In this document: piece after piece, positions 77 to 42,044 of the stretch
Layout: each line of letters starts with the position of its first letter
How positions within the stretch are numbered: the first letter of the stretch is position 1
Source of the DNA: Desulfobulbaceae bacterium
GTDB lineage: Bacteria > Desulfobacterota > Desulfobulbia > Desulfobulbales > UBA5123
Assembly (NCBI GenBank): GCA_029865195.1
Contig: JAOUHH010000001.1
Coordinates: 1-42,050 of the forward strand
Length of the DNA stretch: 42,050 bases
Direction: 5' to 3'
Translations under genes and position numbers: made by a program
The notes under the pieces: model-generated
Seen by the model: only the letters and a program-made list of their open reading frames with translations
Databases searched by the model: none
What the model was told of the DNA's origin: nothing

Positions 77-310
77 TCACGCCGCCTCGCTGTCGGGCCA
101 GAGTTCTGCCACCGGGCGGTTGATGGCGTCAGCGATCAACTCTTTGCCGGCCATTGTTTTAAGGGTTCCAGAGACATGTCTCGACACCCACGGCCCAGAT
201 TTCTTGGCTTTTTCAGCCAGCTGCGGTCTCCAGTCGCGACCAAGGATGGATACGAGTGCGCCCCTGATCTTGTCTGGTGTCCACTTTGTGTTTGTTTGTG
301 TTGTCTCCAT
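77..310 (-). CDS. Cro/YdaS-like small HTH protein (start refined to METTQTN)
   Basis: 77 aa, divergent from the repressor gene. The C-terminal '...ELIADAINRPVAELWPD' resembles Cro/YdaS-type proteins. ATG is at 308-310. Confidence 0.45.
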   Translation of the reverse strand: METTQTNTKWTPDKIRGALVSILGRDWRPQLAEKAKKSGPWVSRHVSGTLKTMAGKELIADAINRPVAELWPDSEAA

Positions 311-21199: not shown

Positions 21200-21220
21200 C
21201 GGGTGGGGGGGATGGGCAAC

Positions 21221-21245
21221 AAAAAACCCCGCCGGGATGGGCGGG
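21221..21245 (-). terminator. Rho-independent terminator ending the antirepressor transcription unit
   Basis: On the minus strand: CCCCGCC-loop-GGCGGGG followed by TTTTTT. Confidence 0.6.
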
Positions 21246-21273
21246 GTTAGGTGGGCGAGCGGTGATGGGCTGG

Positions 21274-21498
21274 CTACTTCGTGACGACTGAAAGCCGCCC
21301 CTTGGCTCCTTGTCTTTTGAGATAATCGTGATAGCCGGGCTGGGAGAGCAGACGCCCGGAAACAAGAATCAACTCCAAAAGGTCGCAGGTTTCAAGAAAA
21401 CCTACAATCGACCTTCTCCAATGGCATGCCGCCTTTGAGTGGCGACCGCCTTGATCGGCTGGGGGTCTTACCGGCAAACGGACGATGGTGGCGCTCAT
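21274..21498 (-). CDS. Hypothetical small protein coupled to the antirepressor gene
   Basis: ATGA overlap with the antirepressor stop. Coding status is uncertain. Confidence 0.3.
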   Translation of the reverse strand: MSATIVRLPVRPPADQGGRHSKAACHWRRSIVGFLETCDLLELILVSGRLLSQPGYHDYLKRQGAKGRLSVVTK

Positions 21499-22376
21499 GC
21501 TTCACCCCCTTCCGCCATATCGGCAAACCGGACAAAGCGGTGATAGCGGTAACCGTGGGCGATCTTGCGGCAAGGCTCGCGCCGCCATCCCAAAAACGCC
21601 AGCGATTCTGACTCGCGGGAAAAGAGTGTTCCAAGGTGCTTTGGGTTTCTGAAGATGAGCGGCAACCTGGGCGCCCGCCCGGCGGCGATGAACGCCCCGA
21701 AGAACTGTGCCGTGGTGCCCTGCAGCCATTGGCCGTCAGGCCCGGTGCCGGTTTCAAGGCCGCAGCCGTTCGGTGGTGATGGCAGCAGCAGGGAAAGATA
21801 CTGCGACAGGGTGGCGGCCACGTCCGAGGCGGCAGGGTCCGGCGATTCGATTTCCTCCAGCAGGTCGGCAACCGGCATGCCGGTGAAGAAGTGCAGCGCC
21901 CGAAGGCTGGCCTTGCCCTTGAGGTACTTGTCCGCCTCGCGGCACAGAGCCGAGATGGCGTCCATGGAAAGGCCAGGGGAGGGCAAGGCCGCGCCTCCGG
22001 CATACTGCATCCGTTCGGCCCTGCCGGTGGTCCAATATTGCCACAGGGCGTCGTCGCATTCGTTTTGATAAGAGAGGATTTTTTCCCGGAGTTCTGGGCG
22101 GACTTTCTTGTGATTGATGGTGGCCAGGAACCCGGCAACCTTGCGGATGGGGATGCAGATGGTTTCTTGAATCCCTCCTGCGGAAGGCGTTGTGATAATC
22201 ACAACACCCCATCGATCATTGTTATTCTGTAATTTCACATACTGACTTGCCCAGTTTAGCCCCATGTTCTCAATGATCGGCCTGACCGGGGCGAAGGGTT
22301 CGCCGTTGTGGTCAACGGCAAAGATGGTGTCCCCGTGAAAAGGGACTGGTTCAAGTTGTTTGGCTTGCGCGGACAT
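21495..22376 (-). CDS. Antirepressor-like protein with a P22 Ant N-terminal-type domain (start refined to MSAQAKQ)
   Basis: 'PFHGDTIFAVDHNGEPFAPVRPIIENMGLNWASQYVKL' fits the P22_AR_N pattern. AGGAG lies 8 nt upstream of the ATG at 22374-22376. Confidence 0.7.
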   Translation of the reverse strand: MSAQAKQLEPVPFHGDTIFAVDHNGEPFAPVRPIIENMGLNWASQYVKLQNNNDRWGVVIITTPSAGGIQETICIPIRKVAGFLATINHKKVRPELREKILSYQNECDDALWQYWTTGRAERMQYAGGAALPSPGLSMDAISALCREADKYLKGKASLRALHFFTGMPVADLLEEIESPDPAASDVAATLSQYLSLLLPSPPNGCGLETGTGPDGQWLQGTTAQFFGAFIAAGRAPRLPLIFRNPKHLGTLFSRESESLAFLGWRREPCRKIAHGYRYHRFVRFADMAEGGEA

Positions 22377-22533
22377 GGCGGCTTCTCCTTTGTTGGGGTA
22401 AGAACTCCCCGCCCTCTGCGCTTCCAAACACAAAAAGGGCGGAACCGTACGGGTTGGAAGACCGGAACAAAGGAACCGGCGAGCCGAAGCTCCCCGCACG
22501 GCCCACCCAAAAGGTAAGCTATGCTGCGGACAC

Positions 22534-22559
22534 AAAAAAACCACCTGCACTGGGGGTGG
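22534..22559 (-). terminator. Intrinsic terminator/attenuator inside the antirepressor leader
   Basis: On the minus strand: CCACC-9 nt-GGTGG followed by seven T. It is nested inside an 8-bp outer stem (22526-22533 paired with 22565-22572). Confidence 0.45.
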
Positions 22560-22623
22560 CGGTGGTGTCCGCCTTTGTTTCCGGGCTTCCAAACCCGGTA
22601 GCGGATTTTGCCGCTACACCCCC

Positions 22624-22652
22624 AAGTTATCTCCTGGTTTTTCTATTGTCAA
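22624..22652 (-). promoter_or_regulatory. Sigma70-type promoter pointing toward the antirepressor gene
   Basis: On the minus strand: TTGACA (22652-22647), 17 nt, TAACTT (22629-22624). Confidence 0.5.
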
Positions 22653-22653
22653 T

Positions 22654-22698
22654 AATTAAATGTGCGGTTAGGGTACACACCTTACCGCACATTTAATT
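22654..22698. repeat. Perfect 15-bp inverted repeat AATTAAATGTGCGGT-N15-ACCGCACATTTAATT (candidate operator)
   Basis: Read directly. It abuts the -35 of the promoter above. Its core is shared with sites at 31493-31589 and 42031-42044. Confidence 0.6.
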
Positions 22699-22707
22699 AC
22701 ATAGGCC

Positions 22708-23091
22708 ATGTATAACTATACCAGATGTCCACATTGCGAAAGACTATACAAACTCGGCGATAAAAAACTCCAAATTATTGGGCAAGAGTTTGCTTGTCGC
22801 TGCGGCCAGCGTTTTGTTGCAACGGCGATAGAGGGAATACTACTTAAAGAGGACATCAAACGTGCATGCAAATTTAACCTCCTCTCGGTTGACTACATTA
22901 ACAAAGAATCAAAAAGGGATTCATTGCCGTTTGGGGTTCTTTTTGAAGAGTTTATGGATATGGTAAAGGATCACGCAATAACAAAATTGATTCGTGACCA
23001 CATAAACAAAAACAGATCAAGCTGGCGGAAACTATCAACAAAGGATGTTGAGGAAATTATAGACAACTTCAAAAAGAATAACGACCGATAG
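22708..23091 (+). CDS. Zinc-ribbon protein; AT-rich cargo gene on the opposite strand from its neighbours
   Basis: 'CPHCERLYKLGDKKLQIIGQEFACRCGQRF' is a CxxC...CxC zinc ribbon. It is the only plus-strand gene inside the late region. Confidence 0.6.
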   Translation: MYNYTRCPHCERLYKLGDKKLQIIGQEFACRCGQRFVATAIEGILLKEDIKRACKFNLLSVDYINKESKRDSLPFGVLFEEFMDMVKDHAITKLIRDHINKNRSSWRKLSTKDVEEIIDNFKKNNDR

Positions 23092-28111: not shown

Positions 28112-28167
28112 GAGACATAACTGTCGCTACACCAGACACCGCTGTGCGGTGCTGGTGAGCTTTTTTG

Positions 28168-29899: not shown

Positions 29900-30109
29900 T
29901 TAGCCAGCCGCCGGCCGACTAACGTAATCTCTTGTAATATGGTTATTGTTTTTGTCGAAATACATTGATTCGGAAAAGTCTCCGGTATCACAATTGTCAC
30001 AAACTATTTCCACCCTTGTAGCGTCTTCTGGGTCTACCGGGGCCCTTGGTGTCTGTTTTTGGCGCTTGCATTTTGGACACCTCAATGTCAAGTATTCGCT
30101 CATTTTCAC
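29900..30109 (-). CDS. Zinc-ribbon small protein
   Basis: 'CPKCKR...CDNCDTGD'. ATGA coupling with the Mor-like gene. Confidence 0.5.
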   Translation of the reverse strand: MKMSEYLTLRCPKCKRQKQTPRAPVDPEDATRVEIVCDNCDTGDFSESMYFDKNNNHITRDYVSRPAAG

Positions 30110-30375
30110 CCCTCATTCACAATTCGTCTGATCTGTCTGGGGCAAAGGCCGAACCGTTCGGCCAGTTCGCCCACGTTGGCGCCGTTGAATAGGAGGCGGA
30201 TGCGGTGGTCGCGGGCCTCCCGGTTGAGCTCGTCCATGGTCGGCACCGTGATCCGGAAACCACCGAGCTCTTCGACCAACACCAGCATAATCGCGGCGCC
30301 AGCCTCCGCGCCAAACTCCTGCACCAGCCTGGCGGCGTATTGATCAATCAGTTCCCTGTTCTCGGCCCTCGACAC
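30106..30375 (-). CDS. Mor/C-family transcriptional activator-like protein
   Basis: The C-terminal HTH 'RIRLLFNGANVGELAERFGLCPRQIRRIV' fits the Mor family pattern. Confidence 0.65.
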   Translation of the reverse strand: MSRAENRELIDQYAARLVQEFGAEAGAAIMLVLVEELGGFRITVPTMDELNREARDHRIRLLFNGANVGELAERFGLCPRQIRRIVNEG

Positions 30376-31492: not shown

Positions 31493-31506
31493 CTTACCGC
31501 ACATTT
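31493..31506. promoter_or_regulatory. 14-mer CTTACCGCACATTT, identical to 22681-22694, next to an extended -10-like TGaTAACAT on the minus strand
   Basis: Read directly. It lies about 110-150 bp upstream of the recombinase start. Confidence 0.45.
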
Positions 31507-31558: not shown

Positions 31559-31589
31559 TAACCGCACAATTTATTACTATGTGCGGTTA
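31559..31589. repeat. Inverted repeat TAACCGCACA-N11-TGTGCGGTTA (lox/dif-like or operator-like site)
   Basis: Perfect 10-bp arms. It can also be read as imperfect 12-bp arms with a 7-bp AT-rich spacer. Confidence 0.5.
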
Positions 31590-31846
31590 GAATGATTCCG
31601 TTATTCCGTCTATTATTTGCTACACGTTCCTAATAAGAAAAAAGAGAGAGACAACAGGGTGGTTTTCCCCTTTCCCCCCGGTTCTTTCAGCCGATTTCAT
31701 ACTATTACTAAGTAACCCCATATTAGGTATCTTCTCTCCCGCTAAACGAGGCCGGCGGCGGGTGCAGCGGCCCTCATGGGCGGGTAAAGGGAACAGCGGC
31801 CGCGCCCGGTCTTAGCTGTTTTGCGCCCCCCGAGGCGCTTTTTCAG

Positions 31847-32155
31847 TTGCACCCTAGCACCCTATTTTGTAAAGTGGCGTTTCTCCGACGTTTTTCTTGG
31901 GTGCATTTCAAAAAGCAGGCCCAAGAGTTGCACCCAACTTGCACCCACTTGCACCCAACTTGCACCCAACTTGCACCCAATCTAAATAACTAAAATTAAA
32001 TATAAAAATAAGGTTTGGGTGCAAGGGTGCAAGTGTTTCAGAAATGCGCCCGCCATCTCTGCAAAACACTAAGAAAAAAGGGGTGAGGTCTGGTTTTTTG
32101 ACAAATCCACCCTTTTGCCGTGTTTTTGCACCCACCAGCTTGCACCCACTTGCAC
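31847..32155. repeat. Iteron cluster with an AT-rich tract: candidate replication origin
   Basis: TTGCACCCA occurs five times in tandem at 31928, 31939, 31949, 31960 and 31971, spaced 10-11 bp. Further copies lie at 31847, 32126 and 32140, with a partial copy at 32150. Inverted copies lie at 31898, 32016 and 32024. AT-rich tract at 31981-32014. Confidence 0.7.
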
Positions 32156-39745: not shown

Positions 39746-40381
39746 TCAAATCCCTCCCACCCGCTCCATCTGTTCCTTGGTCGGCTTGGTGTAGATCATG
39801 GTTGATGAAAACGCCTTGTGACGGAGTTGCTCGGCGCAAAATTGCAGTTTTTGCTGCTGTTCTTCCGGCAGCAGGTTGATCAGGTCGGCGATGATCCGGT
39901 GCGCCTTCGTGTGCCGCAGGGCATGCGGGGTGTAGATGTTGATCCCCGCCTCGCGGCACCAGTTCCCCATCAGGTCGTTAAAGGTCCGCGCCCCGATCCG
40001 TCCGCCCTTCTTGCTCACAAAGAGCGGGGCGTCGGCGGCCAGGCTTTCGCCCCATGTCCGCTTGCGGCGCAGGTGCGCGGCCAGAATCTCGCGCAGGTCT
40101 TTGTTCATGTAAACGGCGCCGGTCGCTCCCTTCTTGGCGATCCGCTCGTCGACCACCAGCTGGTTCTTGATGGTCACGCCGTTGTCGGTTACGTCGCCCA
40201 CGTTCAGGGCGATGGCCTCGCCGCGCCGCAGGGCGGTGTGGCGGCACATCTTGAGCAGGGCGAAGTCGCGCTCCGCCTGCTTGCCCTTGCGGCCTTTGAT
40301 GGTCGCAAAGAGCGCTTTTTCTTCCGCCTCGGTCAGGTAGTTTTCCCCGGCCCTGGTCTGGATAGGGTTGTTCATGGTCAT
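39746..40381 (-). CDS. Third, small (211 aa) tyrosine recombinase without an N-terminal core-binding domain
   Basis: 'TALRRGEAIAL', 'HALRHTKAH' and 'LRHKAFSSTMIYT'. GGGAGG precedes the ATG at 40379-40381. Confidence 0.8.
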   Translation of the reverse strand: MTMNNPIQTRAGENYLTEAEEKALFATIKGRKGKQAERDFALLKMCRHTALRRGEAIALNVGDVTDNGVTIKNQLVVDERIAKKGATGAVYMNKDLREILAAHLRRKRTWGESLAADAPLFVSKKGGRIGARTFNDLMGNWCREAGINIYTPHALRHTKAHRIIADLINLLPEEQQQKLQFCAEQLRHKAFSSTMIYTKPTKEQMERVGGI

Positions 40382-40683
40382 GGATTGCCTCCCGTTGCTG
40401 TTGGTTGTGCCTCGAAGGTCTCGCGGGGCAGGCGGCGAGGCATACCGCTTTTCGGGGCGCACTCCCTATCCCCGCGATTCCAGATGATGAACCCGACCAC
40501 CGACGTGGCCAGATAAAAGCAAAAAAGAGCCACCGCCGGCCAGTTGCCGACCCGGTAAAACGCGCCGATCCAGCCGATGTTGGCGAATATCCACACACCC
40601 TGCCCACTGCGGCGGCGGGCCATATTGAGCACCGCGCCGGTCATGCTGAGTCCGGTGAGCATCCAGGTCGGCTCAAGAGGCAT
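40378..40683 (-). CDS. Small integral membrane protein (about 3 TM helices)
   Basis: Hydrophobic segments with conserved Trp and Gly residues. ATGA coupling to the recombinase gene. Confidence 0.45.
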   Translation of the reverse strand: MPLEPTWMLTGLSMTGAVLNMARRRSGQGVWIFANIGWIGAFYRVGNWPAVALFCFYLATSVVGFIIWNRGDRECAPKSGMPRRLPRETFEAQPTATGGNP

Positions 40684-41237: not shown

Positions 41238-41433
41238 GGTGTTGTGCCTCCAGTTGCTGTTGGTTGTGCCTGGTCAGGGCGTCTGTGTTTCCCGCGTTGA
41301 TTTCGGCGGCCAGCATCTTGACTTTGAACAGGTCCATCGCCGCCTCTTCCTTGCGGAGGACCATCGCCGCAAGGGTCTGGCTAAGTTCGGCGACCTTCCT
41401 TTCAAGTGCTTCGATGCGGGCCATGTCGCTCAC
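41221..41433 (-). CDS. Hypothetical coiled-coil protein
   Basis: 'IEALERKVAELSQTLAAM'. ATGA coupling to the CII-like gene. Confidence 0.4.
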   Translation of the reverse strand: MSDMARIEALERKVAELSQTLAAMVLRKEEAAMDLFKVKMLAAEINAGNTDALTRHNQQQLEAQHHGKRA

Positions 41434-41942
41434 GGTAACTTTCCCCCGTTGTCGGCGGCGCAGCGTACCGAGTGGATGTACGCCATGGTCTGCCGGACAA
41501 GGTCCATCCCCTCTTTTTCGATGGCCGCCGCGTCCTTGTGTGAGGCGTGGCCGTCGGCCAGCCTTTGGCTTGCAGCCTGAGTGAGGTCGCTGAACTCCTT
41601 GATGGTCTTGAGCAGTTCCTTGTTGAGGGCCTCAAGGCACTTGGGCGCGGTCGGCAGCGGCAGGGCGATATGGTCGACGGCGTGGCAGATGTGGTACAGG
41701 GCCGCGAAATTCTGAGACAGCCGCAAAGTGGGGATGAATCTCCCGAGTTGGAACTCAAGTTCTGGAATGTTCGGATTGACCGAGTTGGCCAGTGTTGAGT
41801 AGCTGCACCCAAGTTCCTCGGCCATGGCCTTCATTGGTGTGTTGCCGTGGTGAACGGTTTCGTACAGCGCCTCTTTCAGGGTCGAGTAGCGCACGGTGTT
41901 GAACGGGCTGCCTGCGTATGGGTTTCTGGTTGCATCGCTCAT
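41430..41942 (-). CDS. Phage 186 CII-type (CP76 family) regulatory protein
   Basis: 'MKAMAEELGCSYSTLANSVNPNIPELEFQLGRFIPTLRLSQNFAALYHICHAVDHIALPLP' parallels my recollection of 186 CII 'MAKLAERAGMNVQTLRNKLNPEQPHQF...'. Confidence 0.65.
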   Translation of the reverse strand: MSDATRNPYAGSPFNTVRYSTLKEALYETVHHGNTPMKAMAEELGCSYSTLANSVNPNIPELEFQLGRFIPTLRLSQNFAALYHICHAVDHIALPLPTAPKCLEALNKELLKTIKEFSDLTQAASQRLADGHASHKDAAAIEKEGMDLVRQTMAYIHSVRCAADNGGKLP

Positions 41943-42030: not shown

Positions 42031-42044
42031 CTCACCGCACATTT
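42031..42044. promoter_or_regulatory. Third copy of the 14-mer (CTCACCGCACATTT, one mismatch), upstream of the CII-like gene
   Basis: Read directly. It lies about 90-100 bp upstream of the start at 41942. Confidence 0.4.

Follow-up and report, generated by a model that had tools for sequence, protein, structure and literature searches.

A predicted C4 antisense RNA cassette of the P1 immI/Gifsy-1 isrK type ahead of a P22_AR_N-type antirepressor gene

The control region of a phage antirepressor gene (ant) was analysed in a stretch of 42,050 nucleotides from a Desulfobulbaceae bacterium (GenBank assembly GCA_029865195.1, contig JAOUHH010000001.1, positions 1 to 42,050; hereafter the window). 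The region from about 22700 to 21218 on the minus strand is very probably a self-contained immunity cassette of the phage P1 immI/Gifsy-1 isrK type, in which a C4 antisense RNA would guard the ribosome-binding site of the antirepressor. This assignment is based on membership in known RNA families, on targets that are exactly complementary to C4 and co-vary with it among relatives, and on agreement with P1 and Gifsy-1 in each element. To judge from its sequence, the cassette is real and looks functional, and it is an ordinary member of a described family. An unannotated gap of 330 bp thereby becomes a fully assigned regulatory cassette, and a P22_AR_N-type antirepressor joins the proteins guarded by C4; the C4 principle has been known since 1990, and little of it is new. 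According to a preliminary description of the same DNA, the antirepressor has a promoter to itself, and its structured leader, of roughly 240 nt, contains a terminator; the sequence features bear out all of this. The description had also offered a short RNA and attenuation or antitermination as two alternative readings. These are both parts of one known system, and the predicted main gate is not attenuation or antitermination alone but the pairing of C4 over the antirepressor Shine-Dalgarno sequence, with terminator and short RNA as accessory layers. The C4 RNA itself, the central actor, was missing from that account.

C4 RNA, its targets and the antirepressor gene

The 330-bp gap separates a divergent open reading frame (ORF) at 22708 from the antirepressor ATG at 22376. 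The hairpins, stems and repeats listed in the preliminary description were all found in it, on the minus strand and at the positions given there, by inspection of the sequence and by a search for repeats and inverted pairs (Table 1). In silico folding, a check proposed in the same description, gave a leader more stable than its shuffled versions (z = −4.55; none of 200 shuffles was as good). In an Rfam scan of the window, three families exceeded their curated thresholds; their matches form a row on the minus strand, directly before ant. One of these is the C4 antisense RNA (RF01695), which matches at 22514–22435 over its full length (model positions 1–87) with 51.5 bits against a threshold of 45, and which is the only C4 found by Rfam search in the 2.74-Mb genome. 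The 80-nt piece folds into a long closing stem and two hairpins, with the pairing sequence b' in a loop and a' in the junction (−43.7 kcal/mol); from an alignment to the annotated C4 of P1, the mature RNA is predicted at about 22508–22438.

The a' and b' sequences of C4 are exactly complementary to four sites in the leader, over 7, 8, 7 and 9 nt for a1, b1, a2 and b2, respectively. The b2 target overlaps the Shine-Dalgarno sequence, and the energy of the b':b2 duplex is −11.4 kcal/mol. The combination TTGGAAG-N(5–35)-ACAAAGG has three copies in the window (a1b1, a2b2 and C4 itself) against 0.01 expected per window, and was found nowhere else in the whole 2.7-Mb genome. The repeated CUUCCAAAC elements of the preliminary description form direct-repeat family D1 (22415–22429 and 22580–22594) and are therefore a1 and a2 read on the opposite strand. 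Because the sequence is G+C-rich, nothing could be learned from the energies of full-length C4:target duplexes (−57 and −59 kcal/mol versus shuffled means of about −47 ± 5); exact complementarity and co-variation were used instead. A 365-codon ORF with a TTG start, which runs through the leader in the ant frame (21495–22592), was rejected as an open-frame artefact with no plausible start context.

The antirepressor gene follows b2 directly. Its product matches P22_AR_N (Pfam PF10547, E = 1e-39, residues 10–120) and PHROG 524, 'anti-repressor Ant' (E = 5e-53). P22_AR_C was not detected and residues 125–293 had no Pfam match; a sequence search gave no PDB relative, and the best BLASTP hit to P1 Ant1/Ant2 had an E of 0.15. 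The stop codon of ant is overlapped (ATGA) by a 74-aa ORF, which is uncertain as a gene: Pfam and PHROG searches assigned no family to it and it is absent from the public gene calls. A strong intrinsic terminator closes the unit, making it an autonomous insert with the portal gene on one side and the scaffold gene on the other; the cassette adjoins an AT-rich gene pair. Given the U7 terminator of the leader (see below) and the one at 21218–21248, late transcription coming from the portal gene could include the scaffold and capsid genes only with the help of antitermination or of a new promoter.

Table 1. Positions of the features of the cassette and of related elements in the window.
Feature	Position	Strand	Remarks
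Candidate operator (palindrome), core AAATGTGCGGTwAG	22653–22699		20-nt arms, 19/20 complementary, 7-nt centre; abuts −35; inverted pair I1
Promoter (predicted)	−35 TTGACA 22652–22647; −10 TAACTT 22629–22624	minus	17-nt spacer; predicted start G22617
IsrK-like RNA, ~84 nt (predicted)	22617–22534	minus	hairpin 1, hairpin 2, single-stranded b1, GGCGG/CCGCC hairpin, weak terminator
Hairpin 1, GUAGCGG/CCGCUAC	22617–22598	minus	from sequence
Hairpin 2, CCGGG/CCCGG	22598–22581	minus	displays a1; from sequence
a1 target, UUGGAAG	22592–22586	minus	loop of 5' hairpin 2; complementary to C4 a'; inverted pair I2
b1 target, AACAAAGG	22579–22572	minus	linker; complementary to C4 b'; inverted pair I5, family D2
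GGCGG/CCGCC hairpin	22573–22558	minus	from fold
Outer stem, GCGGACAC with GUGUCCGC	22572–22565 with 22533–22526	minus	8 bp, encloses terminator; inverted pair I4
Terminator hairpin, CCACC/GGUGG, and U7	22559–22541; U7 22540–22534	minus	from fold
C4 b', CCUUUGUU	22473–22466	minus	loop of C4 hairpin 2
C4 a', CUUCCAA	22460–22454	minus	C4 junction
a2 target, UUGGAAG	22427–22421	minus	complementary to C4 a'; family D1
b2 target, AACAAAGGA	22394–22386	minus	complementary to C4 b'; inverted pair I3, family D2
Shine-Dalgarno, AAGGAG	22390–22385	minus	overlapped by b2; 8 nt before ATG
Palindrome and repeat inventory, including repeated CTTCCAAAC	leader		direct-repeat families D1, D2; inverted pairs I1–I5
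Antirepressor gene, 293 aa	21495–22376	minus	ATG 22376
74-aa ORF	21274–21498	minus	uncertain as gene
Intrinsic terminator, strong	21248–21218	minus	9-bp stem, 7 G-C pairs, T-run; closes unit
Mor-like protein	30109–30375		
Three further ACCGCACA motif copies	31493–31506; inverted pair 31559–31590		upstream of Xer-like recombinase/Mor-like activator operon
CII-like (CP76) protein	41433–41942		
Further motif copy	42031–42044		89 nt upstream of CII (CP76)-like gene

Promoter, short RNA and candidate operator

The promoter had been called near-consensus. Its −35 element is perfect, but the −10 hexamer agrees with the consensus at T1, A2 and T6 only (3/6), and a consensus promoter scan did not call it. 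We base the call on its position: TTGACn-17/18-TAnnnT stands at a fixed distance from hairpin 1 at P1c4 (P51b) of P1, at PisrK of Gifsy-1 and in the Pseudomonas and Bordetella phage modules, and P1c4 has been defined experimentally. The predicted start lies 241 nt before the antirepressor ATG and coincides with model position 1 of isrK.

The other two Rfam families cover the 5' part of the leader. The c4-a1b1 motif (RF03163) matches at 22630–22578 with 52.5 bits (threshold 46.7), and its layout is found here: two hairpins right after the promoter, a1 in the second loop and b1 just beyond. The isrK family (RF01394) matches at 22617–22534 with 59 bits (threshold 50), with three hairpins of which the last is followed by a U-run. 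The short RNA of about 85 nt foreseen in the preliminary description thus agrees with a known family. With 5 bp and a 9-nt loop (−5.5 kcal/mol), its terminator hairpin is weak, and it shares 2 nt (22559–22558) with the stronger upstream GGCGG/CCGCC hairpin, with which it partially competes. An outer stem encloses the terminator and can form in read-through transcripts only; the fold energy of this region (22526–22572) is −23 kcal/mol. The outer stem, which neither the isrK nor the c4-a1b1 model of Rfam includes, has counterparts with compensatory changes in P1, in Gifsy-1, in the phages of Pseudomonas and Bordetella and in the majority of IMG/VR modules.

Operator control of the promoter had also been proposed. 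There is indeed a palindrome, and two other regulatory regions of the contig carry its motif; the promoter region of the phage's own cI-like gene, however, lacks the motif and has a different palindrome, TGTAACCCGCGTTACA. The palindrome core AAATGTGCGGT has four exact copies on this contig and none elsewhere in the metagenome-assembled genome (MAG), as judged by an 11-mer search; the 8-mer core of the motif occurs 7 times versus 2.1 expected. Six aligned sites, two of them degenerate, share wAATnAAATGTGCGGTwAG and are located upstream of three minus-strand units: ant, the Xer-like recombinase/Mor-like activator operon and the CII (CP76)-like gene. These sites suggest a candidate operator, which probably links the promoter to a phage DNA-binding protein. 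The scattered copies resemble the arrangement in P1, where C1 operators are scattered and one is located at the c4 promoter.

A host uptake sequence or host regulon motif was ruled out, the 11-mer being confined to this contig, and so was an intrinsic terminator, since there is no U-run and the palindrome lies between divergent starts. An extra copy of the 8-mer core at 28143 was set aside; it is inside an unrelated hairpin and its flanks are not shared. Scanning IMG/VR for the operator motif yielded 37 single unrelated matches and no relatives. The divergent ORF beyond the palindrome (22708–23091, plus strand) encodes 127 aa with a zinc ribbon, is AT-rich and is the sole plus-strand gene in a long minus-strand block. 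Its only PHROG match is weak and is to a family without a known function; the public gene calls skip the ORF. Its start is 9 bp away from the palindrome, so a divergent promoter could also be under the control of the candidate operator.

Relatives of the cassette, proposed mechanism and alternatives

A pattern for the C4 core retrieved 80 loci from IMG/VR; with P1, one Pseudomonas aeruginosa phage and two Bordetella avium phages, these gave a survey set of 68 non-redundant modules, in which a' and b' occur in 26 different letter combinations. In 91% of the 68 modules, C4 was complementary to each of the four targets over at least 6 nt, versus 1.7% when a' and b' were taken from a module of other specificity. 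A hairpin with T-run was present between b1 and C4 in 58/68 modules. The outer stem around the terminator reached at least 7 bp in 77%, versus 18% in a flank-swap control, and its compensatory variants include ACAC/GUGU, ACAA/UUGU, AUA/UAU and AUGA/UCGU. In 23 of 64 modules, the sequence TTGAYn-17/18-TAnnnT was found 31–32 nt before a1. Downstream of b2, the first ORF encodes a small Icd-like protein in 44 of 64 modules and a large protein in the other 20; all ten distinct large proteins tested were of antirepressor types (Bro-N, ORF6N+P22_AR_C, Rha, AntA and ANT). Judged from these sequences, the cassette is a portable controller ahead of at least six unrelated antirepressor families, in about one-third of cases without icd. 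In the Bordetella phages vB_BaM-IFTN3 (2207–2716), IFTN7 and IFTN9, the a1b1/C4 region is covered in public records by an opposite-strand coding sequence annotated as 'hypothetical protein' or 'integrase'. These calls, upstream of antirepressor genes, are probably spurious.

The order of the RNA parts (a1, b1, C4, a2, b2, then the gene) is the same as in immI of P1 and P7. The annotated P1 record lists the operator Oc4 (also named Op51), the promoters P2c4 and P1c4, a1, b1, a 77-nt C4, a2, b2, icd and ant1/2. In both phages, a1 and b1 are spaced 14 nt apart, and 10 nt separate b2 from the start codon. Both have a hairpin and U-run between b1 and C4, flanked by an outer stem (GCGGACA/UGUCCG in P1), and the repressor operator upstream of the P1 promoter may have its counterpart in the candidate operator. 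The C4 RNA of P1 is excised from a longer precursor, with RNase P acting at the 5' end, and experimental precedent for C4 antisense control was reportedly provided by Citron and Schuster in 1990 (Cell 62:591, as cited in PMC8201110). The two cassettes differ in that P1 has icd, whereas here b2 masks the antirepressor's own ribosome-binding site, and in that the antirepressor is of the P22_AR_N type and unrelated to Ant1. The pairing letters differ as well, only one promoter is visible here, and the 47-bp palindrome contrasts with the 17-bp asymmetric C1 site of P1.

The closest architecture is that of isrK-STnc1160/orf45-anrP of Gifsy-1, because it lacks icd, as does the window. Gifsy-1 has the TTGACA −35 element, a short a1/b1 hairpin RNA ending at a leaky terminator (Rfam isrK, 79 bits), a C4 match of 69 bits about 20–25 nt later (25 nt in our search) and a b2, UCACCGGAGG, directly over the Shine-Dalgarno sequence of anrP. 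Gifsy-1 differs in its ORF6N-type AnrP, in pairing specificity and in host, and Hershko-Shalev et al. (2016, PMC4825925) explain its control by translational coupling that involves a 45-codon ORF. In that system, the short IsrK arises by termination while a fraction of the transcripts reads through, and it activates antirepressor translation in trans (PMC4825925). The isrK-anrP interval treated there as orf45/STnc1160 (NC_010392.1, 34131–34316, minus strand) is the 69-bit C4 match, and from the sequence classical C4 masking may apply in Gifsy-1 alongside the published orf45-coupling model.

The immI region of P22 (Mnt, Arc, sar) shares the antirepressor N-domain, and there, too, an antisense RNA limits translation of ant, as is proposed here. 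The sar RNA is read from the strand opposite to ant and spans the ant ribosome-binding site; in contrast, the regulator predicted here is a C4 RNA from the same strand that acts in trans. P22 also differs in the C-terminal domain P22_AR_C, of which none was detected in the window's antirepressor.

We infer transcript ends, processing, direction of regulation, operator role and the target of the antirepressor, and propose the following mechanism. Transcription would start at about 22617 from a sigma-70 promoter. Part of the transcripts would end at the weak U7 terminator, giving an RNA of ~84 nt that displays the decoys a1 and b1, and the remaining ones would read through and carry C4 and the antirepressor mRNA. 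C4 is probably excised from the precursor, as in P1; its junction sequence a' would bind a2, and its loop sequence b' would bind b2. With the Shine-Dalgarno sequence covered by b2, an excess of C4 would keep the antirepressor from being translated. C4 could be titrated by a1/b1, both on the short RNA and in cis, so that a higher promoter activity or a shift in the ratio of termination to read-through would release translation. The antirepressor would then inactivate the phage repressor.

A number of observations weigh against assigning the region to this family as a working cassette. The C4 match exceeds its threshold by no more than 6.5 bits and has a 3-nt deletion in its outer stem, which gives rise to three non-canonical pairs, and the icd of P1 is absent between b2 and the antirepressor ORF. 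The terminator hairpin is weak, and the short RNA may therefore be a minor product. In the minimum-energy fold of the whole leader, a1/b1 pair with a'/b' in cis and the Shine-Dalgarno sequence is left unpaired. Whether the net effect at a given promoter activity is negative or positive would therefore be decided by processing and by the kinetics of folding. The inactive "structure A" of Gifsy-1 has the same cis pairing. No close relative of the phage was found that shows this exact copy of the cassette to be conserved. The nearest Ant relatives are at most 55% identical, over the N-domain only, and other P22_AR_N proteins are mostly without the cassette: none of 32 loci of Ant relatives has a C4 above threshold, and only Bordetella phage IFTN8 has a sub-threshold copy (42 bits). 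The public assembly copy of the region is 100% identical, which says nothing on conservation. The prophage is absent from the same-genus genomes; in the host's order, C4 modules of other specificities are present in two genomes.

Among the alternatives, a mainly transcriptional control as by the CI RNA of phage P4 fares best, although we consider it unlikely. Here, C4 would act on nascent a1/b1 and/or a2/b2 and cause premature termination, at U7 or via Rho after a translation block, possibly on top of the masking of the ribosome-binding site. P4 immunity likewise has a small processed RNA between two complementary targets in one transcript (seqA-CI-seqC), an analogy drawn in PMC4825925, but it acts by premature transcription termination of replication genes and not at an antirepressor ribosome-binding site. 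In the window, b1 abuts the GGCGG hairpin and an arm of the outer stem, as such control would suggest. In P1, a translational block of icd is said to cause polarity on ant (Biere and co-workers, in 1992), which also counts for this alternative. However, C4 bound at b1 would disturb only 1–2 bp of the adjoining hairpins, so that no clear structural switch results, and the position of b2 over the Shine-Dalgarno sequence favours translational control as the primary step.

A pure cis attenuator or antiterminator, in which passage of U7 alone decides, via alternative hairpins or a protein antiterminator and with no RNA in trans, is highly improbable. The 2-nt overlap of the two hairpins, the weakness of the terminator and its conservation in the surveyed modules would fit, but the C4 family match, the complementarity at four sites, the position of b2 and the co-variation across the family are left unexplained, and termination is one layer of the known system rather than an alternative to it. 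There is similarly little room for a decayed or silent remnant, recognisable yet regulating nothing in this phage: the weak −10 element and terminator, the near-threshold C4 and the odd place inside a head-gene cluster beside AT-rich genes are outweighed by four perfectly complementary targets (complementarity would be lost first in decay) and by an intact ant ORF with a good Shine-Dalgarno sequence and spacing, in a unit that has its own strong terminator.

Repressor, induction and other features of the contig

The cI-like protein (197 aa, 377–967) has an HTH_3 domain only in Pfam searches and no Peptidase_S24, in line with the earlier view that it lacks a recognisable autocleavage domain. 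Its helix-turn-helix (HTH) domain is weakly similar to the repressors of Gifsy-1 and Gifsy-2. The gene heads a cI...int operon opposite a CII-like gene, a layout like that of coliphage 186 or K139, phages with repressors that do not cleave themselves. The likeness to 186 CI/Tum and to the Gifsy GfoA/GfhA systems extends to a repressor of about 190–200 aa with an N-terminal HTH and no S24 domain, to a separate antirepressor and to a cI...int lysogeny operon with a CP76-type CII. Their antirepressors are controlled by LexA; in contrast, a host LexA box, for which a search had been suggested, was not found, as CTGT-N8-ACAG occurs nowhere in the window, and control here would lie with the RNA cassette and a DNA-binding protein. 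Because the cI-like protein has no S24 domain, induction of this phage through the antirepressor is plausible. The homologous Gifsy-1 locus contributes to prophage induction, and its isrK promoter is required for spontaneous induction in stationary phase (PMC4825925).

We see only a slim chance that the C4/decoy cassette together with the contig-specific ACCGCACA operator is the actual induction trigger in a 186/K139-like phage, responding to a non-SOS signal. If so, the signal would act via the operator-binding protein or via the ratio of short to read-through RNA, and the family-wide outer stem around a leaky terminator would be a functional element that sets this ratio. Neither LexA_DNA_bind nor Peptidase_S24 was found in the 93%-complete MAG. 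Proteins with S24 are present in all three same-genus genomes, so their lack in the MAG is probably an assembly gap, and the idea of a host without LexA was dropped.

The contig ends (1–380 and 41430–42050) look like one interrupted early region. A Cro/Apl-like ORF at about 77–309 (minus strand) is divergent from the cI-like gene, with TGTAACCCGCGTTACA at 320–335 between the two, and the CII (CP76)-like gene at the far end would extend this leftward operon if the genome were circular; no terminal overlap of the contig was found. An Rfam int-alpA RNA matches at 40410–40476 on the minus strand (43.8 bits, threshold 35.8) and adjoins the gene of a 238-aa tyrosine recombinase (39749–40462). About five tandem, iteron-like copies of TTGCACCCAAC at ~31925–31985 lie in a 500-bp non-coding stretch together with three copies of ACCGCACA. 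This stretch, between the Xer-like recombinase gene and a block of methylase-like, PAPS-reductase and primase genes, may be a replication origin.

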